A stretch of DNA of 64,000 bases from a virus (IMGVR_UViG_3300028591_000109:1-64000); one strand, 5' to 3'. Shown: positions 5,441 to 59,331, counted from the first letter of the stretch. A program made the numbers and translations. Notes: a model not told the origin generated them from the letters alone.

Positions 5441-5872
5441 ATCGCTGAATGTTTTTCGGCTAAGATAATGCGCCGGGGCGGCGGCGGCAAGGGCGGGATG
5501 CGATGGATGATGGATGATGGAAGATGGATGACCCCGACGCGCACTTCTTCCTTCAGCCTTCAGCCCTCAGACATCAAAAAAAATAGCAGCCACCCGAATG
5601 CTACAACGGAGCGGCTGCCGGAACGAGAGGAGCTACACGTGAACCTCCCGATGGGTTGCCGGAGTGACCCGGCAAAAACAAACTACTAATCTACTAAAAC
5701 AAATCAAAAAATGCGTGGCGCCATCGCGGCGGCAAAGGAATTGTTGTACAAGAAGCGCCTCGCGGCGGCGTATGAAGAAATTCATTCTATAGAGTAAGCG
5801 GCGCAGACGCGGGGCGTGGTGGTGTGGAGGGCAGACCCGCGTTTTAGGTGGCGGGTGAACTGCGCCGCTGTG

Positions 5873-5944
5873 TTGCGGAAGATGGGTTCGCACCATCGAC
5901 CTCCGGGTTATGAGCCCGGCGAGCTACTACTGCTCCATTCCGCG
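5873..5944 (-). tRNA. tRNA-Met(CAT), initiator type
   Basis: Cloverleaf CGCGGAA/TTCCGCA with C1:A72 mismatch; anticodon stem CCGGG/CCCGG, loop CTCATAA; TAACTTTG promoter at ~5985. Confidence 0.9.
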
Positions 5945-7602: not shown

Positions 7603-8562
7603 TCAGCCATCAGCCTTCGCTTTCTTCTCCAGTGTGCGCAGCGACTGGCCCCAGAGCATGGCAGCGGTGGTGACGCTGTGCAGGCGGTCGAGGATAGCTG
7701 GACCGTACTCGCCGTAGTGGTCGGCAATGGTGGCAGCGAAGGGCCAGGAAGCGGCGGGATAGTTGGCGGGACAGGGCTGGGGCGAGAGACTGGTGGCAAT
7801 GATGAGCAGTAGTCCGCGCTGCTCGGCAAGGTCGAGGATGTCGAGGATAGAGGTGTCGCGGTTCTTGTAGCGGTAGATCGGTTCGCGGCCCATGTCGTCG
7901 ATGATGAGGGCACGCTGGCGCAGCAGTTCCTCCTTGCTGATGACAGGGGCTGTTCCCGACTTGGCAGAAGGATGGAGAATGTCGTAGAGGTCGGCGGCGC
8001 TGATGACGCGCAGGTTGCGCTGGAAGACGGCTGGCAGTATGCGGGTGACGAGGGTGGTCTTGCCTGTGCCGGAGGCTCCGAAGATGAACAGCCCCCTACC
8101 CCGGTTGTCGGTCTTGCTCCGGTTGTCGGCGAGCCACTGGGCCACGCGGTCGTAGCCGGAGAGCCACTGTGTGCGACCTTTAAAGAGGCGGCGCATCTCG
8201 GTGGTCATGCGGAGCTGTGCGTCGGGTATCTGGAACGAGGGGATGGATGCCTGCGGCGCGGTGAGGAAGTCGATGGGCTGTCCGTCGGCATTGGACAGGA
8301 TGCGATACTGAAGGGTGACGCCGTGGCCGAAGGCTTGCTTCAGGGCGGCTTCGATGAGCGGCACGTAGAAGTGCTCGATGTAGTCGTAGACATGGCGGGC
8401 GGGCACGCGGAGCAGGAGCACGTTGGCGGCAGGATCGTAGCTCTCGAAGGTGACGGGGACGAACCATGTGGTGAACGTCCAGTCGTCGACGCGGGACTGT
8501 ATCAGCCGGAGGGCTTCAGCCCAAAGGAGGGAGTAGTCTTTGTCGTGCATAGCGGTTACCAT
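7603..8562 (-). CDS. DnaA N-terminal domain fused to a DnaC/IstB-like AAA+ ATPase (putative helicase loader)
   Basis: LW..AL..I...V....FTTWF.P....Y...LLLRVP resembles DnaA domain I; Walker A GASGTGKT; Walker B LIIDDMG; overlaps the rep stop. Confidence 0.75.
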   Translation of the reverse strand: MVTAMHDKDYSLLWAEALRLIQSRVDDWTFTTWFVPVTFESYDPAANVLLLRVPARHVYDYIEHFYVPLIEAALKQAFGHGVTLQYRILSNADGQPIDFLTAPQASIPSFQIPDAQLRMTTEMRRLFKGRTQWLSGYDRVAQWLADNRSKTDNRGRGLFIFGASGTGKTTLVTRILPAVFQRNLRVISAADLYDILHPSAKSGTAPVISKEELLRQRALIIDDMGREPIYRYKNRDTSILDILDLAEQRGLLLIIATSLSPQPCPANYPAASWPFAATIADHYGEYGPAILDRLHSVTTAAMLWGQSLRTLEKKAKADG

Positions 8563-10163
8563 AGTTTAAGTTCGGGAGATTCAGAGGGGGCGGTGGACTG
8601 CTGTGATACAGCAGTAGATGGGACGGCGGCGGGGATTTCCTCGGCGGGGGTAAAGATGTCTTGGAGTTCGTTCTTGCAGAAATTGGAGAGCGACTTCTTG
8701 GCAAAGTCGTGGATGGCGGTGCGGCGGTCGGCGGCATAGCGCTTCTCTATGTTCTGCCGGCGGGTGTCAGTGGTGGCCGTCTGGAGGGCAGCGTCACGCT
8801 CGGCATCGAGGGCGTCGAGACGGCGGCATACCTCCCACTGGGGCTTGCGGCTGCTGAGTCCGTCGATGATATAGTCCACCTTCTCTTCGAGTTGCTGCAG
8901 TGAGCCGGAGGCGATGCGAGTGTAGGAGAGTGCCTTGTCGTAGTGCAGGTAGAGCTGCTCGGTCATCTTGCCAATGATGCGCCGCTGCTGTGCGTTGATG
9001 TCGCGCCCGTCCTGTATCTGCCGGCCCAGCGATGACACATGTAGGGTAAAGATGATGCGGTCGGCCACCTCTACGCGGGTGTTGCGCGAAGTGTCGGTGC
9101 GCTTCGTCACCTCTATATCCAGGTTGTACTCTACGCGCGGCGGTACCGATGTCGTGCCATCGTCGGCGGGTTTCGGGGCCATGCGCAGGAAGTCCTCGCG
9201 GATGGGTTCGAGCACACGCTTCTGGAAGAGCGACAGCTTGGGATAGACGCCCATCAGGACGTGACGTTCGTCGGGAGCGTTGATGCGCACGGTATGACTA
9301 TCGGGCAGTTCCTGGATGACGTTCTTGCCGCCGTCGGGATTCTGGTCGATGCCGAGGGTGGTGCGCAGTGCCGTCCACGAGAAGTCGAAACGGGTGAAGC
9401 CGCGCGACCAGTAGAGCGAGAGGAACCAGTAAAGACGAATGCTGTACTTGCACTTGAAATCGAGCGTCACGTCAAGGTAGTGCCCATAGCGGTAAGGGTC
9501 GAACAGGCGGTCGGCCACCAGTCCGCTCATACTGATGGCGATGGCGGGCTTTCCGGTGTACTCCCAATGGAAGAGGTGGTTGGGTGCAGAGGGCGGCACG
9601 GGGTCTACCCCACCCTTTGCGTTGCGGTGGGCTTCGGGGTCGTTCCACCGCTTCACGGCTCCGAGGGCCGTTGGCTGGAAGAGTTGCTTCTTAGTGGTGG
9701 AACGTCCGTTGCGCTCGTCGTCGAACTCCCATTCCACGTTGATGTCGCCCATCTTCATCACCGTATCGAAGGCTTCCTGATAGTGGCGCGGCGCAATGCC
9801 GAGGTCGCGCAGGGGGAAGCGGAACTCGTAGTCTCCTAAGTCAGTGAACTGCGACTGCGACTTCTTGGTAATCTTTCCTGCTTCCTCCTCGAACTGCAGC
9901 ATGAGCTGCCCGTCGGTAGTGCCGTTGGCCGTCATGTCGATACGCTTGCGGACAAGTGCCTGAATCTTGTGCAGCACGGCATCGACAATGGCCAGTTCGG
10001 TGCGGGTGATGCCGCCACTGCGCTCGCCGTCGGCTCCCGACAACTTGCCGCCGTAGCGTGCCACGGCGAAGGCGATGGGGATAATGACCGAGCCGTCCTG
10101 CTGGAGCGGTACGGTCTGCTTCTGTCTGACGGGCTTTGCAGCCTCTTTCTTTTTTGCTGGCAT
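8556..10163 (-). CDS. Plasmid-type replication initiator (Rep_3/RepB-like winged helix)
   Basis: FKCKYSIRLY..L...W, LRTTLGI and YPKLSLFQKRVLEP match Rep_3 motifs; start at MPAKKK follows the TATCTTTG promoter (~10241-10248); iterons upstream. Confidence 0.75.
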   Translation of the reverse strand: MPAKKKEAAKPVRQKQTVPLQQDGSVIIPIAFAVARYGGKLSGADGERSGGITRTELAIVDAVLHKIQALVRKRIDMTANGTTDGQLMLQFEEEAGKITKKSQSQFTDLGDYEFRFPLRDLGIAPRHYQEAFDTVMKMGDINVEWEFDDERNGRSTTKKQLFQPTALGAVKRWNDPEAHRNAKGGVDPVPPSAPNHLFHWEYTGKPAIAISMSGLVADRLFDPYRYGHYLDVTLDFKCKYSIRLYWFLSLYWSRGFTRFDFSWTALRTTLGIDQNPDGGKNVIQELPDSHTVRINAPDERHVLMGVYPKLSLFQKRVLEPIREDFLRMAPKPADDGTTSVPPRVEYNLDIEVTKRTDTSRNTRVEVADRIIFTLHVSSLGRQIQDGRDINAQQRRIIGKMTEQLYLHYDKALSYTRIASGSLQQLEEKVDYIIDGLSSRKPQWEVCRRLDALDAERDAALQTATTDTRRQNIEKRYAADRRTAIHDFAKKSLSNFCKNELQDIFTPAEEIPAAVPSTAVSQQSTAPSESPELKLW

Positions 10164-10319
10164 AGTTGTGTAGCTGTTTGATGTCTGATGTATGAGGGCT
10201 GATGGCTGAGCAACTGCCCGTTTGTTCGTTGTAGCGGTTGCAAAGATAAGCATTATTTTTGTAACCGCCAAATTATTTCTCACTTATTTTCAAGTGATTG
10301 TGGTTTTATTATACGGAAT

Positions 10320-10620
10320 GTTACGACCTTGCGGCGGCAAACTTTCTGATAATTGGGCGATTATGCAGGGGTCGTAACTTTTTGGGTAATCTCAGGATAT
10401 TGCTTTTTGTTACGAGGTAGGCTTTTTGTTACCACCCACCGTGAATAGATTGCTTTTTGTTACGAGCCCCGCTGCATGGCTATTGCTTTTTGTTACGACC
10501 TTTATTGCTTTTTGTGCCGACCCCAGCCGGAGAAACGTTGCTATTTGTTACCGGCTTTTATGCTTTTTGTTACCATTCTTATTGCTATTTGTTACGACCT
10601 TTATAGCCTTTTGTTACGAC
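10320..10620. repeat. Iteron array (TTGCTTTTTGTTACGACC consensus), probable origin
   Basis: About 9 direct copies, several ~22 bp apart; inverted GGTCGTAAC copies at ~10370, 10812 and 10888; AT-rich stretch 10660-10770. Confidence 0.8.
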
Positions 10621-10951
10621 CATGTACGTTAACCTGCTGATAATCAATGCCAACTTCGGCCTTATATTATTATAATCTCTATAATCGTTAGAAAAGAATA
10701 AGACATAAAAACAGATATAATAAATATCACTTATATGATTTTCTTTCTGCTCTTAATAAATAGGAAAGCGATATAGCATTTTGCTCCGAACTGTCCGGGC
10801 TGACAGAATGGGGTCGTAACTTTTTGCATAATTTTTGCGGAACAGGCTTTGGGGATCGAATCGCCGAAAGCCCTTTGCCAACGGGAGGGTCGTAACATTT
10901 TCGAGATATTTGCGCCTTGCATCTTAGCGGCTCCGTCGGTATATTACGGTC

Positions 10952-11161
10952 ATGGCAAAGACTTATAAGAACACAACCTCCATAAAGACGGAGGACAAAG
11001 AATACTTGAAGCATGTGTGCGGCGAGTGTAAACGCTGCACACCCGTTACGACATTCAACACACTGACGGTGAAGGACCGGAAGCCCACGCTGGGGCGGTG
11101 TCCGGAAAGTACGTGTAGCGTGCTGCTGTCGCAACGGGCGTGTCCGAAGATCGAGTTGTAG
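10952..11161 (+). CDS. Small Cys-rich (zinc-binding-like) protein
   Basis: CGECKRC...GRCP...ACP; preceded by CGCCTTG-N20-TATATT. Confidence 0.65.
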   Translation: MAKTYKNTTSIKTEDKEYLKHVCGECKRCTPVTTFNTLTVKDRKPTLGRCPESTCSVLLSQRACPKIEL

Positions 11162-11201
11162 GCGGCGAGGTTTGTCCTATTGGAAACTGCCCTACCCTAT
11201 T

Positions 11202-11636
11202 CTACTTACGCCGCTTGGCGGCCACTTTGTCGCGCTCCCAGCCGTACTCGCTGTCGAGGGCGGCGGCTTCGTCGAACTGTTCCTGGGTGATAAGTCCCTC
11301 GGCCAGCAGACCGCGCAGGAACCAGCGGCGGCCTATGTGCTTGATGGTCTGGTTGTAGGCGGGGACATCCTTTGAGTTATACTTCACCTTGATATCGACG
11401 ATCTGCTTGATGCTCTCGGGAATGGCCACGGTGATGAAACATGGTTTCTCGGCGGCTATGCCCGTGGGAGGCTGGGGCGCTTCCTCTGCCCCACCCTGCT
11501 CTTGCGGTTCGGCGGTGACGGATGCGTCAAGTTGCTGGTTGCGCTGCTTCAGACGCTCGCGCAGTTCTATCTGGTTCTCGGTGGTGTCGGTCGCCTGCTT
11601 GCGGCGGTTCCGGCCTGCGTTCATATCGAATGGCAT
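11202..11636 (-). CDS. Small ParA partner (putative centromere-binding, ParG/omega-like)
   Basis: Directly downstream of parA; disordered N-terminus, then FITVAIPESIK beta-helix-helix (RHH-like) pattern. Confidence 0.55.
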   Translation of the reverse strand: MPFDMNAGRNRRKQATDTTENQIELRERLKQRNQQLDASVTAEPQEQGGAEEAPQPPTGIAAEKPCFITVAIPESIKQIVDIKVKYNSKDVPAYNQTIKHIGRRWFLRGLLAEGLITQEQFDEAAALDSEYGWERDKVAAKRRK

Positions 11637-11703
11637 AATCTGATATTCGTTTTAGTTGTGATGTTGTTTATACGATTAGTTGCAATGTTGCAACATAAAA
11701 GAG

Positions 11704-12543
11704 TTACACTGTTGCGTCTTTGAGTTTCTTCTGGATGTCGTTTGCCAACAGGGTGTATTCCTCGGCCACGGGGCAGCTGCTGTCGAAGTCGTAGATGCTG
11801 ACGTGATGGAAGAGCGACTTGCTGACGGCGCTGCGTCGCGAGATGGCCGTGTGGAATATCTGGTCGCCGAACTTCTCGCGCAGTGCCTGCTCCGACTGCT
11901 TGGCCTCGGTGAGGTTGGCCTGTCGCATGGTGATGATGGCACCGAGCACGTCAAGCCGGTCGTTGTCGTTCTGCTGAATGTCGTTCACGTAGGCCAGATA
12001 GTTGTCGAGTCCGTCGATGGCGAACCCTTCGAGCGATATAGGGATGATCAGGGCGGTGGCGGCGATATGCACATTATCGGTGGCGCGTCCGGGATTACCT
12101 GGTGTGTCCATGAGGATGTAGTCGAAGCTGCTGCCCCACTCCGTCAGCCCTTCGCCGGTACGGTCGTCGATGGGGCGCTTGAAGGCACGTGCCAGCATGT
12201 TGCCGGGGTTGCGCAGCATGGTCAACTTACTCTCCACCTCGTCCATGCTGATAGAGCTGGGCGTGTAGTAGAGTCCGCTCTCGTCGCGATAGACGGGGAT
12301 GTCGGCTCCGCGAGTGAGTGTGTCGAAGATGGTGGGATCGCCCTGCAGTTCGCGCTGCGGGTCCCAGTCGGTGCATGAGGTGAGATTGCACTTGTAGTCG
12401 AAGTCCATGACAAGCACGCGGAATCCCTGCAGGCGCAGGGCCGTGGCGAGGTTGAGCGTGGTGGTGGTCTTGCCTACCCCACCCTTGAAGTTGCCGACTG
12501 CTATTAGTCCGTGCAACTGTGTCTTAGCATTTTTCTTTTTCAT
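11704..12543 (-). CDS. parA: ParA/Soj-family partition ATPase
   Basis: Deviant Walker A NFKGGVGKTT; RVLVMDFD; DYILMDTP; no N-terminal HTH (type Ib-like). Confidence 0.9.
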   Translation of the reverse strand: MKKKNAKTQLHGLIAVGNFKGGVGKTTTTLNLATALRLQGFRVLVMDFDYKCNLTSCTDWDPQRELQGDPTIFDTLTRGADIPVYRDESGLYYTPSSISMDEVESKLTMLRNPGNMLARAFKRPIDDRTGEGLTEWGSSFDYILMDTPGNPGRATDNVHIAATALIIPISLEGFAIDGLDNYLAYVNDIQQNDNDRLDVLGAIITMRQANLTEAKQSEQALREKFGDQIFHTAISRRSAVSKSLFHHVSIYDFDSSCPVAEEYTLLANDIQKKLKDATV

Positions 12544-12574
12544 TGTCGTGTAGCTTTTATATATTTATAAATAA

Positions 12575-13110
12575 TGTTGTGTAGTTGCCGTTATGTTCTG
12601 TTGCAATGTTGCAAGGTTACGTCTTTGCAGGGTTGTAGCATCGTCCTGCTGTCGTGCTGTCCTGTTGCGCTGCTGCTGCATTGCAGTTTTGCGGTGTTGC
12701 GTTGTCGCTCTGCCGCCGTGTTGTAGCATCTTTCTGCTGTTACTCTGCCGTGTTGCAACTAATCTGTGTTGTTACAGTGTGCAGCGTCAGTGTTGCAGTG
12801 TTACGTCTTCGCGGTGCAGCGGTGTTGCGCTGGCAATGTGTTGCAATGTTGCAATGCAGCGATGGAACGCTGTTGCTTTGTTGCGGTGTCACAATGTTGT
12901 GGATTTGTGTATATCCGTTGTAGCGAGTGCAAAGATAGGAATTTATTTTGAAACTACAAAGAAAATTAGGAAAAATGTTGCAAAGAGGCAGCAGAAAATT
13001 GGAAAAGTGTTGTAACAACGCAATGAGGCAGCATAAAATAGTAACAATGTTGCAAAGTTATTCTGTGGCGGTGTTGCCGTTATAATGTGTTGCAATGTTG
13101 CAACAGAATA
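12575..13110. repeat. Degenerate TGTTGC(A) heptad array around the parA promoter (candidate centromere)
   Basis: Many TGTTGC/TGTTGCAA/GTTGT units at ~8-bp spacing on both sides of TATCTTTG (~12930, minus); more copies at ~11655-11720. Confidence 0.65.
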
Positions 13111-13165
13111 ATATTATTCCCTCGCAAAACATCTTCCATCAACCATCACACATCAGCCATCTTTA

Positions 13166-13447: not shown

Positions 13448-14764
13448 ATGATCAAGAAGATACTTGTACGCGACTACCTGAAAGGGTATGGAGAAATGAC
13501 GGCGGAGGAGCGCAAAGCGTTCGTCGGCAGGGTGGGGGAGTGGCTGACCTCCGACGGGGCGCGGCTGCTGGAGATCACCGACAGGCCGATGGCGAAGAGC
13601 CAGAGCCTGATGACGATCACGACACGGTGGACGGCGGAGGACACCAAGGCGGTGACGGATGGCATCATGCTGATGTCGGCGCTTGTCGGCGTGGCCGATA
13701 CGTGGCTGCCGACGCAGATTTATATGCGGTCGGCGTATCGGGCCGTGAGGCAGGTGTATATCATTCTGAATAGCTTGATTGGTGTCGGCGCGAAAGGAAA
13801 GGCCGACGGACTGAATGTGACGATAAATCCGATAACTGGGGCCCCGATGTTGCCGCCAAAGGTAGTAACGCGGGGTAATGGAAAGACTTCTGAAACAGCT
13901 GCACGACTACAAGACAAAGGGTGGCAGGGACATCTTCAGCCTGTTCCGGAGATGAAGAAACTGCCGAAGGCTGAACAGATGACGAAACATCCTGGAATTG
14001 AAAAGGGGAGCGGCGTCGCTCTACAACCTCTGGCCAAAAGCGCCGCCGGAGCCGGAGCGGGCAAACCGCAGGCACTCCCCTCTTCTGTTGTTGACACAGG
14101 CCAGACTGAGAAGCCGCTGCCGATGATTAAGACCGTCGGCAAGGAGTATGACGCGGCGACGGACACGGTGAGGGTGCAGTGCGCTGTGGTGCCGGCACGT
14201 CCGAGGCATATCGACCAGTACGTTCACCTGCTGCCGAAGGCGACGCAGGAGCGGGCTGCGGGATATGGGGAACTGATGCGGCAGTACGGCGAGGCGCGCG
14301 ACAATATGCAACTGCTGATGGACGACGACCATGCGAGCGCAAAGAGCCGCGAGCAGTGGGCAAAGCAGGCGACGAAGATTGACAAGAAGATACGGGCGCT
14401 AAAGGAAGAGCTGGACCGGGAGTGGGATAAGGTGGCGGAGAGCGGGCGCGTCCGCACGGATGCCTTCGGCAACGCTTTCCTGGTTCCCGACGGAGAATCG
14501 TCGAACACGACGGCTGACGGAGAAGGCGGGGAGCAGGAGCCTGTGGAACTTACCAGCGAGCAGAAGAAGCGACGCAGGGAGCTGCGGAAGTGGCTTATTG
14601 ATCTGCGACGTGGCAAGGAGGGAAAGGACAGGGAGAAGCGCATCGAGCAGTGGCGCGTGAACTGGCAGGAATATCTGACGCTGGAGCCGAGGGAGAAGGC
14701 TCTGGAGGACGAGAAAATCTTGGAAGCAGCAAAGCACTTCGGAATCAAGTTAAGTGAAGAGTGA
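13448..14764 (+). CDS. Hypothetical phage protein (438 aa, helical domains with a Pro/Lys linker)
   Basis: Long ORF with GCGATATG start context, downstream of GCCCTTG-N20-TATTTT. Confidence 0.75.
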   Translation: MIKKILVRDYLKGYGEMTAEERKAFVGRVGEWLTSDGARLLEITDRPMAKSQSLMTITTRWTAEDTKAVTDGIMLMSALVGVADTWLPTQIYMRSAYRAVRQVYIILNSLIGVGAKGKADGLNVTINPITGAPMLPPKVVTRGNGKTSETAARLQDKGWQGHLQPVPEMKKLPKAEQMTKHPGIEKGSGVALQPLAKSAAGAGAGKPQALPSSVVDTGQTEKPLPMIKTVGKEYDAATDTVRVQCAVVPARPRHIDQYVHLLPKATQERAAGYGELMRQYGEARDNMQLLMDDDHASAKSREQWAKQATKIDKKIRALKEELDREWDKVAESGRVRTDAFGNAFLVPDGESSNTTADGEGGEQEPVELTSEQKKRRRELRKWLIDLRRGKEGKDREKRIEQWRVNWQEYLTLEPREKALEDEKILEAAKHFGIKLSEE

Positions 14765-14956
14765 AAAGTGAAGAGTGAAGAATTTGCTTCCGCTCGGAGA
14801 AATAAGCGGTTCGACTCCGCTCGCTGGCCGAGGTTCGGTAAGTGCAGACACAGGTTCGATTCCTGTCATCCAAACGGATGTGCTGGTGCGTACTGAGGCC
14901 ATTTCTTTTTAAACACAAATTATCACGAATTATTCATCAATAAAACATTAGGCGAT

Positions 14957-15239: not shown

Positions 15240-15310
15240 AGGAGATTGGTGTAATGGCAGCACATGAGATTCTGACTCTCAGGGCAGGGGTTCGAGCCCT
15301 CTATCTCCTA
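15240..15310 (+). tRNA. tRNA-Gln(CTG)
   Basis: AGGAGAT/ATCTCCT acceptor stem; D-arm TGGTGTAATGGCAGCAC; anticodon arm TGAGA-TTCTGAC-TCTCA; T-loop GGTTCGAG. Confidence 0.85.
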
Positions 15311-15335
15311 CAGATAACACAAAACGGAATAGACT

Positions 15336-16460: not shown

Positions 16461-16767
16461 GGGGGTATTCTGGTTTTGATTGCTGATGGAAGGCAAGGAA
16501 TCGTGCAGGCAGTCATGCCTTGAAATGGCAGAACAAATAAACGCTAAGGTTGTCGATATGACTCCCCGCGCCCAGATGCTGGCAGCAGCATAAGCGCCTC
16601 GCGGGTGGCTTGCGAAGGAACATAAAGGCCACGGCTCACGTTTTCCGCGTTTTCTCAAAATGCGGTGGTGGAACGCTCGCCCGACAAGAGTCTGGTCAGC
16701 CCCGACGCACGTGATGAAGTTCCTATAATAAGTCAGTAAGACGAGGGTTCGACTCCCTCTACCTCCA
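16461..16767 (+). ncRNA. ssrA: tmRNA (tag peptide AKVVDMTPRAQMLAAA)
   Basis: GGGGGTA/TACCTCC-A acceptor stem with G3:U70; 5' TTCTGGTTTTGA; 3' T-arm GAGGGTTCGACTCCCTC; tag ORF 16543-16593 after AATAAAC ending in LAAA-stop. Confidence 0.9.
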
Positions 16768-16817
16768 CGAATAAACCGGGTTTCGGCCCATAGTATTAAC
16801 TTAATTTTTATGCAACG

Positions 16818-18318: not shown

Positions 18319-19107
18319 ATGGCAAAGACTTATAAGAAAGGAAGCAAGGGTGGGGGAGTAGAGATGCTGCAGCGGCTGCTGCAGGAGCGGGGCTACCAGC
18401 TGACGGCTGACGGCGACTACGGCCCCAGGACGGTGGCGGCGGTGACGGCGTTCCAGCAGGCGGAGGAACTGGTGGCCGACGGCATAGCGGGACGGAAGAC
18501 GATGGCGCGGCTGGCGGGGGTGACGCTGACGGAGGCGTTCATCCGTCAGCACATCACGTTTGCACCGGGGCGGGCGGTGAACTACATCGCCATCCACTAC
18601 ACCGCCGGGAGCCGTAGCACACGCGGGGCGGCGAAGGCCAACCGCGACGTGTTCACCAAGCGCCCTGCGAGCGCCGACTTCGTGGTGGACGACGAGCAGA
18701 CTATTCAGGTGAACCCCGACATCGACAGCTACTACTGCTGGGCAGTGGGCGACAAGCGGAATCCCTGGACGGGCGGCGCACGGCTCAGCGGTAAGGCTAC
18801 GAACCGCAACACCGTCAGCATTGAGATGTGCTCCACGCTCAGCAAGGGTACGTCGGCATCGGCTCCCAACCATGAGGGCTGGACGCTGAGCGACGCCGTG
18901 ATAGCGAGGACGCTGCGCCTGGTGCGCTACCTGATGATGGCCTACGACATACCCCGCGAGCGCGTCGTGCGCCACTACGACGTGACGGGCAAGCTATGCC
19001 CCGGCGTGCCGGGCTGGAACGACGGCCCGCTGTTCGACACCGCAGGGAAGCAGACAAACCGGAAGAGCGACAGCCACAAGTGGGCGGAGTTCATCGCGGC
19101 GATATGA
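18319..19107 (+). CDS. Endolysin: peptidoglycan-binding domain + Amidase_2 N-acetylmuramoyl-L-alanine amidase
   Basis: DGDYGPRT..AV.AFQ...DGIAG; YIAIHYT, SIEMC, VRHYDVTGKLCPG. Confidence 0.9.
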   Translation: MAKTYKKGSKGGGVEMLQRLLQERGYQLTADGDYGPRTVAAVTAFQQAEELVADGIAGRKTMARLAGVTLTEAFIRQHITFAPGRAVNYIAIHYTAGSRSTRGAAKANRDVFTKRPASADFVVDDEQTIQVNPDIDSYYCWAVGDKRNPWTGGARLSGKATNRNTVSIEMCSTLSKGTSASAPNHEGWTLSDAVIARTLRLVRYLMMAYDIPRERVVRHYDVTGKLCPGVPGWNDGPLFDTAGKQTNRKSDSHKWAEFIAAI

Positions 19108-20397: not shown

Positions 20398-22323
20398 ATG
20401 GCAAGGAAAGGATTCAGCGACACGGACAGCGACGCAACGCTGGGGCGCATGCTGCCACTCTCGGAGCCGCAGAAGGACTACGACGACGAGGACGAGGACG
20501 GCGAGCGACAGGCACCGTCGCAGCGATACATCTACGAGAACGAGGCCCAGTCGAAACGCCGCACCTACCGCTGCCGTGAGACCTACGAGGTGGCGGGGCG
20601 CGGTACGGGCAAGACCACCGACATAGCCGAGCACGTGAAGGAGGTGTCGATGCGCATACCCCGTTCTACCAACGTGTTCCTGGGCTGCAGCGTGAAGCAG
20701 CTCTACCTGAAGACGTGGCCCGCCGTGGTGAAGGGACTGGAGATGATGGGCATGGTGGAGGGGCGCGACTTCATGCGCCAGCGACCGCCCGCCAAACTGC
20801 ACTGGCCGATGCCGCTCTCGAAGCCCCGCTCGTGGGAGAACGTGACTATCTTCCCGACGGGCGCGGCCTGGTATTCGATATCAATGGCAGTACGCGCCAG
20901 TGTGAACGGCATGACACTCTCGTCGGCAGCCAGCGACGAGACGCGCTATCTGCCTTTCCAGAAAATCAAGGAGGAACTGTTTCCTGCCCTGCGCCCCGAG
21001 CTGATAGCCAAGGGCAGCGGACTGACGGGTGACGGATTCCGCAACACCGCCAAGTACACTTTCGGCTACAACAAGGACTATAACCCCCTGTATCTCTCGA
21101 AGTTCTTTGTCAGCGACCCTGCCATCACGCAGAAACAGGCCGTCTGGGAGCAGGAGGAGCTGAACCAGACCGTAGACATCAACCACGAGATAGACCTCAT
21201 GCTGGCCGAAGCCGAGGAGATGCCCGAACTGTGGCACGTTGACGGGTTCCTGAAGCGCATCAACCAACTCCGTTGTCAGAGTAAGATTTTCTTCCGTTTC
21301 AGCAGTCTTGCCAATATCGAGATATTGGGCGAGGACTGGTTCCGCGAGATGCGCCGCTCACTGCCCGATATCATGTACCGCATCCAGATACTCGGTCAGC
21401 GCAAGGGACTGGCCCGCGATGGGTACTACTGCAACTTCGATATCGACATCCACGGCTATCATCAGAGTGATATGGAGACGATGGACCGTCTGCTCTCCAA
21501 CTACACCACCCACTACTCGCGCACCGGACTGGACCAGGCACACAACCCCACCGAGATAGAATACGAGGCCATCGACCTGCGGCGCACCGCCAAGGTCAGC
21601 GACTGCTCGCTGGACGTAGACCTGGACTACTCGCTTCCTATCCGACTCGCCTTCGATTATAATGCCAACCTGAACTGTGCCGTGCTGGGTCAGTTGCGCC
21701 GCTTCGACGGACGCGAATCGCTCATGGTGCTGAAGAGCATGTTCACCATGAACGAGCAGAAGATACGAGCCCTCTGCAAGAACATCTGCACTTACTACCG
21801 CCCGTTCATCGACCGTGGCGGCGACTTCATCTACTACTTCGACTCGACGGCAAAACAGGGAGCCTCGCTGGCCTACGCCGTAGAGGGAGCACAGGCGCAG
21901 AACTTCAACGATGTGGTCATCGAGGAGATGCGCCGCCACGGTGCCAGAGTCACACCTGTTGACATCGGCGCACCCATGAAGCACAACCAGAAGTTCCAGA
22001 TGATATGCGACGTGTTCAGCTTCCAGCAGGGACCCGCCGTGCGCATCAACGCCGACGAGGATCGCAACGAGTATCTGATAACGGCCATGGAGAACTGCGC
22101 CACCGAACAGACCGCCACCGGCATACGCAAATACAAAGGAGGTGAGAAGCTGAAAGCCACCACCGAGGGCGCGGAAGGCGCGATAGATCCAAGAGTCAGA
22201 ACCGACGTAACAGATGCCTTCGACACGCTGTTGATAGGCTGCAAGTTCTATACCAACGGTGTCAGGGCCATCGGCGGCAGACTGCGCGGAAGGTTTCAGA
22301 ACTTGGCGGGCATACCGCACTAA
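20398..22323 (+). CDS. terL: Terminase large subunit
   Basis: Walker A AGRGTGKT; Walker B-like AASDE; nuclease acidic motifs LAFDYN and TDVTDAFD. Confidence 0.85.
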   Translation: MARKGFSDTDSDATLGRMLPLSEPQKDYDDEDEDGERQAPSQRYIYENEAQSKRRTYRCRETYEVAGRGTGKTTDIAEHVKEVSMRIPRSTNVFLGCSVKQLYLKTWPAVVKGLEMMGMVEGRDFMRQRPPAKLHWPMPLSKPRSWENVTIFPTGAAWYSISMAVRASVNGMTLSSAASDETRYLPFQKIKEELFPALRPELIAKGSGLTGDGFRNTAKYTFGYNKDYNPLYLSKFFVSDPAITQKQAVWEQEELNQTVDINHEIDLMLAEAEEMPELWHVDGFLKRINQLRCQSKIFFRFSSLANIEILGEDWFREMRRSLPDIMYRIQILGQRKGLARDGYYCNFDIDIHGYHQSDMETMDRLLSNYTTHYSRTGLDQAHNPTEIEYEAIDLRRTAKVSDCSLDVDLDYSLPIRLAFDYNANLNCAVLGQLRRFDGRESLMVLKSMFTMNEQKIRALCKNICTYYRPFIDRGGDFIYYFDSTAKQGASLAYAVEGAQAQNFNDVVIEEMRRHGARVTPVDIGAPMKHNQKFQMICDVFSFQQGPAVRINADEDRNEYLITAMENCATEQTATGIRKYKGGEKLKATTEGAEGAIDPRVRTDVTDAFDTLLIGCKFYTNGVRAIGGRLRGRFQNLAGIPH

Positions 22324-22344: not shown

Positions 22345-22434
22345 CCTGCCCTTGGCTTCGCCGAGTGCAGGCTTCGCCTCGGCATAGATTGCAAGCGCGG
22401 CTTGCATCTCTGCTCTCGGCTCGCACTGCCCTTG
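22345..22434 (+). mobile_element. Palindromic REP/MITE-like insert with CTGCCCTTG duplication
   Basis: Near-identical to 13166-13254. Confidence 0.55.
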
Positions 22435-22485
22435 ATTTCCAGCCCTCTCACCCCTATCTTCATCTCAAAAATCCGACACAAGATT

Positions 22486-24318
22486 ATGACTAAGCACAAG
22501 AACAACAGAGGTAATGCGGGCAGCATCATCCACCGTCCGAAGACCTTCTCGGAATATCAGAAGCTCGACCGTTCGCTGCGGGAGCGTGGGTTTGTGGCAC
22601 TCGACGTGCTCAACGGCAAGGTGCGCTCTCTTTCCCTCGGCGACCGCGACCCGTCGAAGGGTGAGGCACAGTCGATGGCCTCCGGCATGAGTTGCGGCAC
22701 GCTGAGCAACGGCCCGCTGTCGCAGGTGGCATGGTCGTTCGACAGCACCGACTCCATGCCGACCTCCATCAGCGACAAGGACGGCAAGCCGCTTGGACGC
22801 GGCTACATCAAGTGGGGGCCGAAGGACAACCTGCCCGGCGTCATCTACTCGCTGGCCAAGGCAAGCCCCTACACCGCCGCACCGCTGCGCTACCTGGCCG
22901 ACCTGGCCACGGGACTGGGCGTAAGGCTGATGTACCACTTTGAGGACGACACCTACTGCGAGTTCCAGCACGCGGGCTTCAACCTGCGGCTGCGCTACGA
23001 GCAGGCCCGCAAGGGAGAGCAGCAGGACGAGTACGGCGGCGACATGGCTATTGACCCCGCTGCCGCCCCCGGTGAAGATCCGCTGAAGCCCATCACCGAG
23101 ATAGCCCCCGAGAACCGTCCGAAGAAGCGGCTGCAGGGCATCGGCCCCGACTACTGGGAGCAGGCTTATTACGAGTGGGAGCGCACATGGGAGGGCTACG
23201 ACGAGCAGGACGACAGCGGCATGGAGCGCCACGTACCCGGCGTGAAGCAGTTTCTGGAGGAGAACAACCTCGACCTGCACCTCTCGCAGTGCATGCTCGA
23301 CTTCATGTACTACGACCTCTTCTTCCCCACCGTCGGCTTCGAGCGAGGCCGCCGTGGCCGCTGGGACCCGCGCATCGTGAAGATAGGTCAACTGAAAATC
23401 ACAGACGGCATCCGCTATGAGGCGATGTCGGAATACCGCCATATCCAGCACGTGTATTTCGGTGAGCGCTTCAGGGCGAAGGGCATCGGCGAGCACAACA
23501 CGATAGGAGCTCACGACGACAAGGTGACGATGTACCCCGTCTGCGAGGCCACCGCCCGCGTCAGCGACATGCGCTACCTCGTCTCGTCGAACCAGCGCAC
23601 CCGCATCAACGCCCGCCCGACGTGGGCCGTCTGCCCCGTCTATTATGGTAATAAGAATTACTATCAGCAGCCCGACTGGTGGAGCATCTTTACATCCAAG
23701 GCTTACGACTTCTCCAGCACCATCCTCTACGACAAGGCGAAGCAGCGCGAGAACAACACCACCTGGGGGCGTATCATCTACATCTCGCTCGACTACCTCG
23801 ACATGGTGTTTGCCGACAATGGCATTGCCGGCGACAAGGATAAGCAGCAGGAGTTTATCGACGAACTGGATCAGAACGTAGAGACGTTCCTGCAGCAGCG
23901 CGAGAACAACGGCAAGATGATGCGCCAGTTCATGTGGCTCGGCCAGGACGGCAAGGATCACCACAACGTCGAGATAGTCGATGTGAAAGAGACCACCAAC
24001 GACGCGGTGAAGGCAGGCAAGGAGGAGCTGGAACTCTCCACATCGCCCATCTTCCTCGCCTTCGGTGTTGACCCCCGTGACATCGGTGTGCCGATGGTCA
24101 GCGCCTCGAACGGCGGCACGGCCCTGCGCGAGATACGTCTGATGAAACAGCAGCTTCTCAACGTGCGGCAGCGCATGTACCTCCGCTTCCTGATGGATGT
24201 CTTCACGTTCAACAGGTTCGACTCGCATCTGGAGCCGATTGTACGCCAAATGAGTTTCACGACCTTGGACCGTAATCCGACGGGTATGGTCGAAACGGTA
24301 GCGGGGCAGGGGGCGTAG
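22486..24318 (+). CDS. Portal protein (Bacteroidota phage type)
   Basis: Follows TerL; YIKWG.KDNLP, YYQQPDW.SIF, L..RENNGK, IFLAFGVDP...GGTALRE and TTLDRN motifs. Confidence 0.75.
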   Translation: MTKHKNNRGNAGSIIHRPKTFSEYQKLDRSLRERGFVALDVLNGKVRSLSLGDRDPSKGEAQSMASGMSCGTLSNGPLSQVAWSFDSTDSMPTSISDKDGKPLGRGYIKWGPKDNLPGVIYSLAKASPYTAAPLRYLADLATGLGVRLMYHFEDDTYCEFQHAGFNLRLRYEQARKGEQQDEYGGDMAIDPAAAPGEDPLKPITEIAPENRPKKRLQGIGPDYWEQAYYEWERTWEGYDEQDDSGMERHVPGVKQFLEENNLDLHLSQCMLDFMYYDLFFPTVGFERGRRGRWDPRIVKIGQLKITDGIRYEAMSEYRHIQHVYFGERFRAKGIGEHNTIGAHDDKVTMYPVCEATARVSDMRYLVSSNQRTRINARPTWAVCPVYYGNKNYYQQPDWWSIFTSKAYDFSSTILYDKAKQRENNTTWGRIIYISLDYLDMVFADNGIAGDKDKQQEFIDELDQNVETFLQQRENNGKMMRQFMWLGQDGKDHHNVEIVDVKETTNDAVKAGKEELELSTSPIFLAFGVDPRDIGVPMVSASNGGTALREIRLMKQQLLNVRQRMYLRFLMDVFTFNRFDSHLEPIVRQMSFTTLDRNPTGMVETVAGQGA

Positions 24319-26079: not shown

Positions 26080-26457
26080 TCACTGCTCCAAAAGTTCTGG
26101 ATTGTCGTGGATGTTGCCGATGACCTCCATGCACGAAGATTTGTGAAATATCGGCCCGCAACCGTGGCCACGAAACGAGAAACCGTTTGTGATGTCTGAC
26201 CAAACGACCTCTTGCACATACCTGCAGCCATTCACTACGGTAGCCACCACGTCGCCCTCATATATCTCCTGCCCGTTCTTGTCCTTCAGACCCGTGTACT
26301 CGCCGCGTGTCTCGGGGGCAATTTCATAATCGTCCCACGACTTGCCATCGGCAAACTCGTCGGGGCAGACGAAGTGTGCGCCACGGTTTGTCAGGTAAAA
26401 ACCATACAGCCACACACCGTTCTTGCGGTTAAATCCGCGAAACTTACTTTCTCTCAT
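26080..26457 (-). CDS. YopX-family protein
   Basis: MRESKFRG...GEYTGLKDKNG.EIYEGD...EVIGNIHDNPELL. Confidence 0.85.
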   Translation of the reverse strand: MRESKFRGFNRKNGVWLYGFYLTNRGAHFVCPDEFADGKSWDDYEIAPETRGEYTGLKDKNGQEIYEGDVVATVVNGCRYVQEVVWSDITNGFSFRGHGCGPIFHKSSCMEVIGNIHDNPELLEQ

Positions 26458-28326: not shown

Positions 28327-29184
28327 ATGATTATGGACCAGAAAACAATCAAGCGGCTCAGTGCCGTGGCAGCCTCGGTGCTGCTCGTGTTAATCATCTT
28401 CTTCGCCTGCTGCACGGTGGTCGACAGCGGAGAGGTGGGCATCAAGTTCCACAAGTGGTCGGCCTCTGAGCAGGACTACGGCGGCGTAGAGGGAACGTGC
28501 AAGGGCTGGGTATTCTACAACCCCATCACCACCTCTGTGTTTACCTACCCCACATTCACGCAGCGCAAGCAGTATGAGACCATCAAGGTGAACGCCAAGG
28601 ATGCCTCCATCTTCGAGATGGACCCAACGATTGCCTACCATATCAACCCGGCCAAGGCGTGCGACATCTTCGTGAAATACCGCGTCGATGTGAAGTCGCT
28701 GGAAGACGGCTACATCCGCACCTGTATCTACGAAGCCTACCGCACCTGCGCCAACCAGTACACCTCGGACTCGCTGATGTCGAACCGTGCCAACTTCGAG
28801 CGCGACGTGCGCAGCCGACTGGAAAAGTCGATGATGGCAGAGGGCTTCCTCGTCGAGGAGTTCACGTCGAAGATTACCCCGCCCGCCTCGCTGACGAGTA
28901 TGATAGATAGTAAGAACGCTGCAATTCAATCTGCCCTGAAGGCAGAGAATCAGGTGAAGGAAGCCGAAGCCAACGCGAAGATCGACGTGGCCAAGGCCGA
29001 GGGCGCTGCGAAGGCCATGCGCATCAAGGCCGATGCCGAGGCATACTATAACAAAACCATCGCCGCCTCTTTGAGCCCGATGATTATCCAGGAGGACATG
29101 ATTGAGAAGTGGGACGGCAAGATGCCGCAGATAGTAGGCGGCAACGGCATGATGCTCGACGTGAGTAAAGTAATAGGTAAGTAA
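28327..29184 (+). CDS. SPFH/Band 7/prohibitin-family membrane protein
   Basis: N-terminal TM, VDSGEVGI, Ala/Glu coiled coil, IEKWDGKMP. Confidence 0.85.
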   Translation: MIMDQKTIKRLSAVAASVLLVLIIFFACCTVVDSGEVGIKFHKWSASEQDYGGVEGTCKGWVFYNPITTSVFTYPTFTQRKQYETIKVNAKDASIFEMDPTIAYHINPAKACDIFVKYRVDVKSLEDGYIRTCIYEAYRTCANQYTSDSLMSNRANFERDVRSRLEKSMMAEGFLVEEFTSKITPPASLTSMIDSKNAAIQSALKAENQVKEAEANAKIDVAKAEGAAKAMRIKADAEAYYNKTIAASLSPMIIQEDMIEKWDGKMPQIVGGNGMMLDVSKVIGK

Positions 29185-29510: not shown

Positions 29511-30302
29511 ATGCTACTGATGCTTACCAATCGCTGCCACATGGAATGTCCGCACTGTATGCAGGACGCCAGACCAGACGGGCAGCACATGACTGAAGAT
29601 ACATTCGACCAGGTGCTCGCGCTGATAGGTGAGGCGCGGCCGCCGGTCGTCACCGTCACCGGCGGTGAGCCCACCGAGCACCCGCACTGGGCTGAGTGGA
29701 CGCGCCACATCCTGAACACAAAGGGTGTCGCCCTCGTGTCGATATGCACCAACGGCGCGTGGATCGAGGACACGAAGGAGCGACTGAAGATGGCGCGGCT
29801 TATCCGCGAGTCAAAGGGGCGCGTGAAGGTGCAGGTGTACTCCCACCCGAAATACTATCAGGACCACGAGTGGACCGTGAGCCACGCCGCGCAGTACCGC
29901 TCCATCGGCTGCATCGCCGACTTCAACAGTCCTATCTTCATGCAGGATCTGGGACGTGCCCGCGAGAACTGCCGCGAGGAGACCGAAGCCTCCGACCACG
30001 TGCCGTCGTGCATCAACTCTCACCTCGTGGCTGTGCAGGCCCACTCGCTGAACCACTTCTTCCTGATGTGCGCCAGTGCCGGCAAGTTCTGCCGTCCGCT
30101 CATCTCGCCCGACGGCGGCGTACACATGTCCGAGTCGCGCCTCTGTCCGCAGGTGGCCCATGTCAGCGACGGTGCCGCCACGGTGTTCCGCAAGATGCAA
30201 CAGAGCCGCCCCTGCCGTGGCTGCCGCCTGTACCAGAACTTCGAGCGCCGCTTCCCCCGCGAGCTGCAAATATTAGACAACCCCATCACCTACCGACAAT
30301 AG
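29511..30302 (+). CDS. Radical SAM protein with Cys-rich (SPASM/Twitch-like) C-terminus
   Basis: TNRCHMECPHC, TGGEPT, CTNG, C-terminal CxxC. Confidence 0.85.
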   Translation: MLLMLTNRCHMECPHCMQDARPDGQHMTEDTFDQVLALIGEARPPVVTVTGGEPTEHPHWAEWTRHILNTKGVALVSICTNGAWIEDTKERLKMARLIRESKGRVKVQVYSHPKYYQDHEWTVSHAAQYRSIGCIADFNSPIFMQDLGRARENCREETEASDHVPSCINSHLVAVQAHSLNHFFLMCASAGKFCRPLISPDGGVHMSESRLCPQVAHVSDGAATVFRKMQQSRPCRGCRLYQNFERRFPRELQILDNPITYRQ

Positions 30303-58330: not shown

Positions 58331-58447
58331 TGGCTGATGGAAGATGGAAGATGGAAGATGTGTGCGTCGGGGTCAGCCCTCATCCCTCAGCCCTCAGCCA
58401 TCCCTACTGCCCTTGAACTTCGTCGCCCAGCGACATATCTTGCCGGC

Positions 58448-59077
58448 ATGACACTGAAAGAGAAAATACAGAAATACTTCCGACGCAAGGCTGCCACCCA
58501 GACCCCTCGGCAGGAGGGGCAGGGGGTGGAGCCTGTTCCCCTCCGCATCGAGGGCGTGAAGCCAGCACCGCTCACACCCGAGCCCGACGACGCGGAGCTG
58601 GCGGCGCAGGCGCTGCTGGAGACGATGTGCGATGTAAGAAGTAAGAAGGAAGATGTAAGAGACGCTGCCGCCGACGCACATCAGCCATCATCCATCAGCC
58701 ATCAGCCATCGAAAAGCCATCAGCCATCAGTACGCGACGCTGCCTACTACCGGCGTCTGGCTGAGCGTATTCGTCTTGCACGGGACCAGGCGACATTGCG
58801 CACGATGCGCTTCGTAACATGGTGCGAGCAGGAGCTTGAGAAGCGTGACCTGCCCATAGAAGGCAAGGGCTCTCTGGCACAGATGGAAGCAGAACTCTAC
58901 AAGCGCATCGACACCATCGAGCGCGTAGGCGGCGAGCTAAAACACCGCTGGCAGCATTGCCTCGCAACCGTCATCGTCCGCCGCATGGAGGAAGAGAGGG
59001 AGGCGACGGAAGATGGAAGACGGAAGATGGAAGACGGAAGCGGCGAGGGCGGCGACCCGTCCGACCCCAATGAGTGA
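58448..59077 (+). CDS. Hypothetical protein ending DPNE, with heptamer-repeat-derived segments
   Basis: Start at MTLKEK, 7 bp after the GCCCTTG-N20-TATCTT promoter. Confidence 0.65.
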   Translation: MTLKEKIQKYFRRKAATQTPRQEGQGVEPVPLRIEGVKPAPLTPEPDDAELAAQALLETMCDVRSKKEDVRDAAADAHQPSSISHQPSKSHQPSVRDAAYYRRLAERIRLARDQATLRTMRFVTWCEQELEKRDLPIEGKGSLAQMEAELYKRIDTIERVGGELKHRWQHCLATVIVRRMEEEREATEDGRRKMEDGSGEGGDPSDPNE

Positions 59078-59178
59078 AGCAGCGAGAGCAGTGCCATGCT
59101 CGCATGAGCACTGCCGAGTCGCGACCACTCTTCGACCGTAAGGTCAATGAGTAACATCGTAGGGTATTCTCTGAAAAT

Positions 59179-59230
59179 AAAAGCCCGTCATCCGGCATCA
59201 GCATCCGGACGGCGGGCTTTCTTTGTTTTT
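59179..59230 (+). terminator. Intrinsic terminator
   Basis: AAAGCCCGTC...GGCGGGCTTT stem followed by a T-rich run. Confidence 0.65.
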
Positions 59231-59331
59231 CCATCACCCATCATCCATCTTCCATCTTCCATCAGCCATCATCCCCTCTCGCCCTTGATTTTGACGACAC
59301 ATAGCCCTATCTTCCCCACAAAAAAACGACT

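Follow-up and report, generated by a model that had tools for sequence, protein, structure and literature searches.

We identified, in a 64,000-nucleotide window of viral DNA (the whole stretch analysed, from whose first letter all coordinates are counted), a segment from 7.6 to 13.1 kb that codes on the minus strand for a ParA ATPase, a 144-aa partner, a 535-aa replication initiator and a coupled ATPase. Judging from its sequence, this segment is probably the phage-plasmid maintenance module of an integrase-less tailed phage of ~141 kb from rumen Bacteroidaceae (Prevotella-like), a reading to which we assign a probability of about 0.65. The lack of an integrase, combined with a full plasmid-style origin and partition system, implies that the phage most likely persists as a low-copy plasmid. 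The phage-plasmid lifestyle is already known; the phage lineage is new. A sequence-only reading of this DNA had proposed an extrachromosomal prophage, and those of its predictions that could be tested in silico—the fold of the initiator, the absence of an integrase, the overlap of the genome ends and the occurrence of relatives as stand-alone contigs—all came out in favor of that proposal.

The whole phage genome comprises 141,567 bp, with a 127-nt overlap shared by both contig ends and no flanking host DNA, as expected of an unintegrated element; CheckV places its completeness at 100%. The IMG/VR entry lists it as linear, which counts against the plasmid reading. No Phage_integrase (PF00589), Resolvase (PF00239) or rve (PF00665) gene, the three recombinase families searched, was detected in the complete 141.6-kb genome, which extends a statement of integrase absence first made for 64 kb. 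Virion and lysis genes and plasmid replication and partition genes thus co-occur on one replicon: the anticipated large terminase (TerL) and tape measure lie on the same contig as the module, together with an endolysin. The portal claimed alongside them did not hold up in the same way, as the candidate at 22402–24318 has zero matches in Pfam or PHROGs; likewise, neither collection identified a capsid gene. The genome further encodes tRNAs, a tmRNA, a DarB-like protein (E = 3.6e-251) and a c4-2-like RNA, the latter scoring 34 bits (E = 3e-5), below the Rfam gathering score, with no repressor or antirepressor recognised nearby. Profile searches of the whole genome found no gene with DnaB_C or DNA_pol_A, and a 1168-aa 'primase' displays just a sub-threshold match to the DnaG zinc ribbon. 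No second replication module was recognised in the genome besides the initiator–ATPase pair.

The initiator is encoded by an ORF of 535 aa at 8556–10163(−), in a frame that stays open to 10283. It had been called a Rep_3-type protein, a claim that fails at the level of direct Pfam matches and stands at the level of remote profiles and fold. Thus, the protein matches no Pfam family at E ≤ 0.1, no PHROG and none of 72,556 PLSDB plasmids, and PF01051 searched against all six reading frames of the genome returned nothing at E ≤ 1. In contrast, a profile of the initiator family reaches the proteins P0015–P0023 with E-values from 5e-12 to 1e-3, five of which contain Rep3_C above the curated cut-off, and a widened profile (A2) matches the WH2 domain of the R6K π protein (2NRA; E = 6e-4). 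Further, Pfam detects Rep3_N and Rep3_C in the Rep proteins at the same position in two relatives (L013 and L011, respectively). The structure model (pLDDT 73.6) suggests a WH1–WH2 unit at residues ~25–380, followed by a helical C-terminal extension (~380–500). Its best Foldseek matches are π, RctB and RepE, with a probability of 0.99 but an E-value of only 8e-3 against 2NRA. VIA-align superimposes the model on π with a Z-score of 10.8 (217 of 252 residues aligned, rmsd 5.8), on RepE54 with a Z-score of ~10 and on RctB with 9.2, compared to 5.9 for the first unrelated chain. Remote sequence and model evidence together point to a divergent Rep_3-type protein with the WH1–WH2 fold of iteron initiators.

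The ATPase encoded immediately downstream (7603–8562(−)) resembles helicase loaders, and its start overlaps the stop of the initiator ORF by 7 nt, in agreement with the coupling noted earlier. It fuses DnaA domain I (residues 13–75; PF11638 DnaA_N, 2e-9) to a DnaC/IstB-like AAA+ module with the Walker A motif GASGTGKT (PF01695 IstB_IS21, 25.9 bits, above the cut-off; phrog_3277, a DnaC-like loader, 1e-14). Homologs with 30–40% identity follow Rep in L011–L013. In the distantly related P0015 and P0023, it is the Rep3_C protein itself that carries DnaA_N as a direct fusion.

This initiator–ATPase pair lies next to iterons, as had been claimed. A repeat search recovered nine direct copies of an 18-bp iteron, consensus TTGCTTTTTGTTACGACC, on the plus strand at 10400–10621, with spacings of 19, 31, 33, 22, 33, 22, 22 and 22 bp; seven copies fall within three mismatches against an expectation of 0.03, a result attained in none of 100 shuffles. 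Adjoining them at 10640–10760 is the predicted AT-rich stretch (73–82% AT), a candidate DNA unwinding element. No DnaA box was found within one mismatch across 10151–11250. Between the rep start and the iterons (10308–10390) sits a pair of inverted half-iterons, GTTACGACC and GGTCGTAAC, a similar element being kept in L001; this pair is a candidate rep operator. Two further inverted half-iterons (GGTCGTAAC at 10813 and 10889; 10810–10897(−)) lie beyond the AT-rich stretch as seen from the iterons. The same iteron precedes Rep in L001 and L004, whose Rep proteins are 67–79% identical, and a variant differing by one base precedes it in L005. Across the relatives, iterons are kept where Rep is kept and replaced where the Rep lineage changes. 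A small Cys-rich ORF of 69 aa (10952–11161(+)), which separates the origin from the partition genes, is an uncertain member of the module, with no Pfam or PHROG match and an empty tblastn search of the relatives.

The parA gene is confirmed at 11704–12543(−). Its 279-aa product matches PF13614 (3e-31), PF01656 (CbiA; 3e-23) and phrog_164 (4e-48), and is a small version without an N-terminal HTH that bears the deviant Walker A motif KGGVGKT at residues 20–26. It is 70–79% identical to the ParA of L011–L013; the best matches on plasmids are at most 34% identical, with the closest by score on a 167-kb Segatella copri plasmid. Directly downstream, at 11202–11636(−), lies the expected small partner gene, whose 144-aa product has 88 homologs with 63–95% identity, several of them on contigs of 107–142 kb. 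In their alignment, the basic N-terminal peptide FDMNAGRNRRK and a C-terminal domain of ~85 aa are conserved, whereas the acidic linker between them varies. Searches of Pfam and PDB and comparisons with PF18064 (CB_ParB_C) and PF09274 (ParG) gave no match. Its language-model neighbours, which serve as a lead only, are CB_ParB_C (0.93), DUF5388, RHH_3, McdB and MetJ, with CB_ParB_C, RHH_3, MetJ and DUF5388 spanning 0.86–0.93. We regard the partner as a candidate centromere-binding protein, putatively of the RHH fold.

Upstream of parA, adjoining its AT-rich promoter region (12544–12574), is an array of 41 units with the consensus TGTTGCrg in perfect 8-bp register (12575–12902(+)). The array had been described as one of heptads; its autocorrelation (0.47–0.49 at lags 8, 16 and 24 against ~0.2 at other lags) and exact register establish a period of eight instead. 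Twelve of the 13 genomic copies of the octamer TGTTGCAA fall in the array region, a number that none of 100 shuffles attains. A second block at 12976–13105(+), shifted by 1 nt relative to the first, has TGTTGCAA copies spaced by 72, 24, 16 and 8 bp and ends in a dyad, so that both blocks together hold ~50 octamers over roughly 530 bp. Another dyad built from the octamer, GTTGCAATGTTGCAACA, lies between parA and the partner gene (11679–11695), and L011–L013 have octamer copies at the equivalent place. These three relatives, which share the par type, display the identical octamer and a lag-8 peak, whereas L001, whose ParA is 38% identical and whose partner is a different one, has different octamers. 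We regard the array as a candidate centromere and operator. The only nearby 7-nt repeat, CCATCAA (3.7 copies at 13136–13161), resembles the many short 7-nt tandem repeats found across the window.

The block consisting of orf438, the array, parA and its partner, the origin, rep and the loader, and orf202 is syntenic in contigs of 96–142 kb, and many samples from sheep, goats and cattle show the same order of genes. These relatives are stand-alone contigs, some of which are binned in Bacteroidaceae MAGs from sheep and goat rumen; two such contigs, 122 and 97 kb long, have both TerL and ParA and no tyrosine integrase. The Prevotella-like host proposed earlier agrees with the names of the MAG bins (Prevotella sp. 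or Bacteroidaceae), from which the host label is taken, and with the Segatella copri plasmid that carries the closest plasmid ParA by score. Further, the cassettes are exchanged: one par module is paired with three other Rep_3 lineages, each bearing its own repeats (L011–L013), and one Rep and iteron type is paired with different octamers and a ParA of 38% identity. Such switching of rep and par specificity fits selection by plasmid incompatibility. In L005 and L006, parA is absent from its slot.

We propose that the initiator binds the nine phased iterons and opens the adjoining AT-rich stretch, upon which the translationally coupled DnaA-domain-I/AAA+ protein would recruit host DnaB. The phage itself encodes neither DnaB nor Pol A, and no DnaA box was found at the origin. 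The iterons and the flanking inverted half-iterons might provide copy control and autorepression. The 144-aa partner would coat the 8-bp-phased array of ~50 octamers at the parA promoter and work with the small ParA, which its conserved basic N-terminal tail may stimulate, comparable to ParG acting on ParF at parH and OF of TP228. Together, these replication and partition elements would maintain the phage as a circular plasmid prophage of low copy number.

Since no replication-initiation module other than the Rep/loader pair is recognisable, the origin may be used in lytic growth as well, or exclusively, as in lambda O/P. Under such an account, the phage would be virulent or in a carrier state, with Rep, iterons and loader forming a single lytic theta origin, and with ParA and its partner distributing genomes during transient pseudolysogeny. 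The lack of any recognised second replication module, repressor or antirepressor is compatible with this, as are the absence of parA from its position in some relatives and the combination of an initiator with a DnaC-like loader, which is the standard lambdoid layout. However, active partition with a ~50-unit centromere and iteron-based copy control suit mainly low-copy inheritance, and the rep/par cassette exchange among relatives, their presence in Bacteroidaceae MAG bins and the c4-like RNA likewise favor a plasmid prophage. On balance, we consider an exclusively lytic role unlikely.

A temperate phage that integrates by means of a recombinase from an unsearched or unrecognisable family, and for which the plasmid module is an accessory or a remnant, is very improbable. 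While the search spanned three families and many ORFs are without annotation, the complete genome has ends that overlap and no host flanks, the module genes are all intact, conserved and syntenic in many relatives, and the stand-alone MAG contigs of relatives are devoid of tyrosine integrases. Equally, a complete plasmid core next to a portal and capsid that Pfam and PHROGs fail to identify might suggest a large plasmid or defective element with captured phage structural genes that no longer makes infectious virions. We deem this scarcely probable given that TerL, tape measure, endolysin, tRNAs, tmRNA and DarB-like protein are all encoded, that CheckV finds the virus complete and that gene order is kept in samples from three ruminant hosts. 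The phage-plasmid remains our preferred reading.

Compared to the Rep_3 iteron plasmids (R6K π, mini-F RepE and pPS10 RepA; PF01051/PF21205), the module has in common the WH1–WH2 fold, direct iterons upstream of rep (here with 22/33-bp phasing), an AT-rich flank and inverted half-iterons close to the rep promoter. It differs in the size of the initiator, which at 535 aa has insertions and a ~120-aa helical tail, and in its lack of a DnaA box, with a dedicated coupled loader that would replace reliance on host DnaA/DnaC. The partition system resembles the type Ib ParF/ParG/parH system of TP228 in pairing a small ParA with a small following partner that has a flexible basic N-terminal tail, and in a long centromere/operator array that repeats every 8 bp and immediately precedes the operon; in TP228, 4-bp boxes with 4-bp spacers precede parFG (PMC3130281). 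In contrast to the 20 boxes of TP228, built from ACTC with AT spacers, the phage array has ~50 octamers over roughly 530 bp with a 6-bp core, TGTTGC, and the partner is without detectable ParG or CB_ParB_C similarity.

Enterobacteria and Bacillota are well-established hosts of phage-plasmids; to our knowledge, crAssphage is the sole case proposed in the literature for Bacteroidota. P1 has a type Ia ParA, an HTH-ParB, a short parS and a separate lytic replicon (repL). With P1 and the integrase-less mycobacteriophages with parABS, the present phage shares an integrase-less tailed-phage organization, an iteron-type replicon and active partition, and its c4-like RNA and DarB-like protein recall P1. 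Its partition is, however, type Ib-like, and it has no recognised second replicon; a P1-type ancestry of the partition system was rejected given the small HTH-less ParA and a partner without a ParB-type Pfam domain. The P1 subgroup is unreported in Bacteroidota, the host phylum here (10.1101/2023.11.10.566511). CrAssphage (Carjivirus communis), the proposed phage-plasmid of this phylum (PMC10983915), persists without integration, as the present phage probably does, but it belongs to an unrelated podovirus-like lineage and the term 'iteron' is not used for it in the accessible part of that source, whereas a classical circular-plasmid tool set is present here.

Lambda has its iterons within the O gene, whose product is not a Rep_3 WH–WH protein; it encodes an integrase and no partition system. 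Common to lambda O/P with ori-lambda and the present phage are an initiator that binds origin iterons and a loader of host DnaB, both predicted here; the differences lie in iterons outside rep, a Rep_3-type initiator, a partition system and the lack of an integrase.

If our reading is correct, persistence as a plasmid occurs among the large tailed phages of Prevotella-like rumen bacteria, and metagenomic calls of 'temperate' or 'virulent' would change, since such phages have no integrase. We see slightly less than an even chance for a broader proposal, namely that a widespread, undescribed family of ~100–140-kb phage-plasmids in rumen and gut Bacteroidaceae swaps rep/iteron and parA/partner/octamer cassettes under incompatibility selection, bypasses host DnaA by way of a mobile DnaA-domain-I module fused to Rep or loader, and offers Prevotella-like genetics its first natural kit for low-copy replication and partition. 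The ~6-kb segment with origin, rep, loader and par might serve as a stable vector backbone for the genetically difficult Prevotella and Segatella, and the ~50-unit, 8-bp-phased centromere and the shifting of DnaA domain I between Rep and loader offer handles for mechanistic work.

The complete virus record is a single IMG/VR entry of 141,567 bp (55.7% GC) with a CheckV completeness of 100%, and the window covers its first 64 kb. On checking its termini, we found that nt 21–147 are identical to the last 127 nt, as is typical of an assembly that is circular or terminally redundant; the 20-nt offset of this overlap explains the ‘linear’ label of the record. Its phage identity is supported by three predicted genes, those for the large terminase (TerL; 20398–22323; 23% identity to a Microcystis phage TerL over 88% of length, E 4e-33), an endolysin (18319–19107) and a tape measure protein (59926 to the end of the window; phrog_167, 6e-20). 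Thus, the terminase and tape measure named in the sequence-only reading are backed by matches, whereas the ORF it took as the portal (22402–24318) has no match in Pfam or PHROGs. The cumulative GC skew tracks gene orientation, with its minimum at the contig ends and its maximum near 109 kb, and therefore speaks neither for nor against an origin at the iterons.

Upstream of rep, the iteron array with an adjacent AT-rich stretch was recovered as previously proposed. The iteron TTGCTTTTTGTTACGACC is present in nine same-strand copies at 10400–10621, mostly 22 or 33 bp apart, with only two weak matches elsewhere in the 141.6 kb; the seven copies in the window within 3 mismatches compare with 0.03 expected. 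The AT-rich stretch (73–82% AT; 10640–10760) follows the iterons, inverted half-iterons (10320/10371 and 10813/10889) flank the origin core, and no DnaA box was found in the origin within 1 mismatch. A 69-aa Cys-rich ORF (CGECKRC ... C ... C; 10952–11161, + strand), without a homolog in the related loci, separates the origin from the partition genes.

The initiator, Rep (535 aa; 8556–10163, − strand), belongs to a narrow family: 5.8 billion clusters yielded 12 close homologs, and 1.84 billion yielded 13 representatives to its profile at E ≤ 1e-3. It has no PHROG family match and no direct Pfam match, either by protein search or in a genome-wide search with the Rep_3 model. The close-family profile has no match in the PDB, a scan of IMG/VR for Rep relatives found none, and tblastn against PLSDB was likewise without a match. 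Nevertheless, the Rep3_C domain scores above the Pfam cut-off in the distant representatives P0015–P0018 and P0023, of which P0015 and P0023 also carry a C-terminal DnaA_N domain, and the widened 18-sequence family profile matches the WH2 domain of R6K pi (E 6e-4). We discarded an earlier model built on an 11-sequence alignment (pLDDT 53) in favor of one built on the 18-sequence alignment (pLDDT 73.6), for which the best five Foldseek chains were those of pi, RctB and RepE. VIA-align superposed this model on pi with a Z-score of 10.8 (217 of 252 residues aligned), on RctB with 9.2 and on some forty RepE54 entries with about 10, with unrelated chains falling to 5.9. Thus, the Rep3_C-bearing relatives, the pi profile match and the fold alignments indicate that Rep is a divergent WH1–WH2 iteron initiator whose predicted structure contains insertions as well as a helical tail. 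The earlier label ‘Rep_3-type’ accordingly stands on remote profile and fold evidence, but not by the direct Pfam test.

The ATPase gene (7603–8562, − strand) follows rep, its ATG overlapping the rep stop by 7 nt. Its product combines a DnaA_N domain (2e-9) with an IstB/DnaC-like AAA+ module (25.9 bits, above the cut-off; phrog_3277, 1e-14), and homologs with 30–40% identity come after the initiator in the related contigs L011, L012 and L013. Neither DnaB_C nor DNA_pol_A is detectable anywhere in the genome; host enzymes must therefore be recruited, and the DnaA-domain-I/DnaC-like protein would be the obvious recruiter of these to the origin. In distant relatives, it is the Rep protein that carries DnaA domain I, which supports an inferred role of this loader at the origin. 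No initiation module other than Rep and the loader is recognizable in the genome, and the pair may therefore also drive lytic replication. Two candidates for a second replication module were rejected: the ‘methylase-helicase’ is a DarB-like protein, and all that the ‘primase’ shows is a zinc-ribbon match below threshold. The carrier of DnaA domain I varies: in P0015 and P0023 the domain is C-terminal on a Rep3_C initiator, whereas in this phage, as in L011 and L012, it is N-terminal on the DnaC-like loader.

As for partitioning, the presence of parA was borne out: it codes for a 279-aa protein (11704–12543, − strand; PF13614, 3e-31; phrog_164, 4e-48) with the deviant Walker A motif KGGVGKT. 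The adjacent 144-aa partner (11202–11636, − strand) is tripartite in alignments: its basic N-terminal peptide and its C-terminal domain are conserved, and the linker joining them varies. It has no match to Pfam, the PDB, CB_ParB_C or ParG, none of these sequence tests confirming an RHH fold, and none by tblastn against PLSDB; its language-model neighbors are CB_ParB_C, RHH_3, MetJ and DUF5388. The repeats at the AT-rich parA promoter region, described earlier as heptads, are in fact octamers: 41 units of consensus TGTTGCrg adjoin this region at 12575–12902 in perfect register, with autocorrelation peaks of 0.47–0.49 at lags 8, 16 and 24. A second octamer block lies at 12976–13105 and a dyad at 11679–11695. 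The array region holds 12 of the 13 genomic copies of TGTTGCAA, a count reached in none of 100 shuffles. This arrangement upstream of parA has the geometry of the TP228 parFG site, at which 20 four-bp boxes, set apart by four-bp spacers, are covered by ParG dimers (PMC3130281). One contig from a goat-gut run (depth 7.6) joins 12495 to 13154, and the whole octamer array would therefore be absent or replaced there, although the joint, obtained at a 90% likeness setting, is of low confidence.

Comparison with related contigs revealed modular exchange of these elements between the flanking genes orf438 and orf202, which are conserved throughout. Three contigs of 132–133 kb (L001–L003) share Rep (79% identity) and an identical iteron; in ParA, identity drops to 38%, and both the partner and the 8-bp arrays (TAAGCAAA, ATATACTC) are different. 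L011–L013 (96–122 kb) share the ParA type (70–79%), the partner (66–75%) and TTGCAACA octamers; their initiators differ from Rep, featuring Rep3_C, Rep3_N or no Pfam match, and L012 and L013 have repeats of their own, with few in L011. Plasmid incompatibility selects for just such swapping of the determinants of specificity, which would thus lend indirect support to a plasmid lifestyle. In two Rep-bearing rumen MAG contigs (L005, 3956–9410, and L006), parA is missing from its place between orf438 and the origin, where an S49 peptidase-like gene lies together with one for an InlB B-repeat protein; the same MAG has a 76%-identical ParA on a different contig.

The absence of an integrase, first noted for the window, now holds for the whole 141.6-kb genome: we found no tyrosine integrase, resolvase-domain recombinase or rve transposase in searches whose controls worked. 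Relatives of TerL are present in 17 of 401 sampled Bacteroidaceae genomes, and two MAGs each have a stand-alone contig (122 and 97 kb) that carries both TerL and a ParA, all integrase matches being on other contigs; the end overlaps of these contigs (23 nt in G226:C8, none in G121:C8) are too weak for a claim of circularity. With respect to the proposed Prevotella-like host, Rep relatives were found in Bacteroidaceae MAGs from sheep and goat rumen, partner homologs are labeled Prevotella sp. or Bacteroidaceae MAG, and the region is present in sheep, goat and bovine gut metagenome runs. Among plasmid matches to ParA, the highest score goes to one on the 167-kb plasmid of Segatella copri DSM 18205, where parA lies beside a replication initiation gene, followed by a small ORF. 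A sheep metatranscriptome yielded exact contigs over par and rep, and also over the terminase and putative portal, at similarly low depth, which cannot separate a plasmid state from lytic expression or carried-over DNA. We consider a phage-plasmid the best-supported reading, at a probability of roughly two in three (0.65), and the original observation of a plasmid-type replicon and partition module in a tailed phage essentially right, with the above corrections.

Likeness to P1 is confined to accessory traits, namely a DarB-like antirestriction methyltransferase-helicase (1696 aa; 118390–123480 of the whole record, − strand; phrog_10089, 3.6e-251), which lies outside the window, and a c4-like RNA, whereas the replicon and partition genes are not of the P1 type. 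The latter RNA (c4-2-like, RF02944; 27760–27845, + strand) falls short of the gathering score of 41, with 34 bits (E 2.9e-5 when 801 bp were searched). It neighbors genes for YopX (26080–26457), an SPFH/Band 7 protein (28327–29184) and a radical SAM protein (29511–30302), with no repressor or antirepressor recognized nearby. Phage-plasmids occur widely in gut phageomes (10.1101/2025.02.07.636470), and crAssphage, a proposed phage-plasmid (PMC10983915), is the precedent from Bacteroidota; the kind is thus already known, and what is new here is the lineage and some unusual details.

The phage also codes for translation-related functions: a tmRNA (16461–16770, + strand; RF00023, 64 bits against a gathering score of 47; ARAGORN tag peptide AKVVDMTPRAQMLAAA), tRNA-Met(CAT) (5872–5944, − strand), tRNA-Gln(CTG) (15240–15311, + strand) and, outside the window, an IF-1 homolog (104960–105262 of the record, + strand; PF01176, 3.9e-22) adjoining a gene for an Rv2179c-like 3'-5' exoribonuclease. 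The tmRNA contig has a depth of 26, the highest among phage-specific contigs of the RNA run, against about 5 elsewhere. Many 7-nt tandem repeats of 3–8 copies are situated at gene boundaries across the window (14753–14781 and, e.g., 2538, 3004, 5502, 7544, 7589, 13136, 44195, 44261, 50482 and 58336–59274). At 14752–14795, contigs of all four runs examined end loosely and the summed depth rises to 6351 against about 100, and the element there is therefore dispersed across many genomes in rumen metagenomes.
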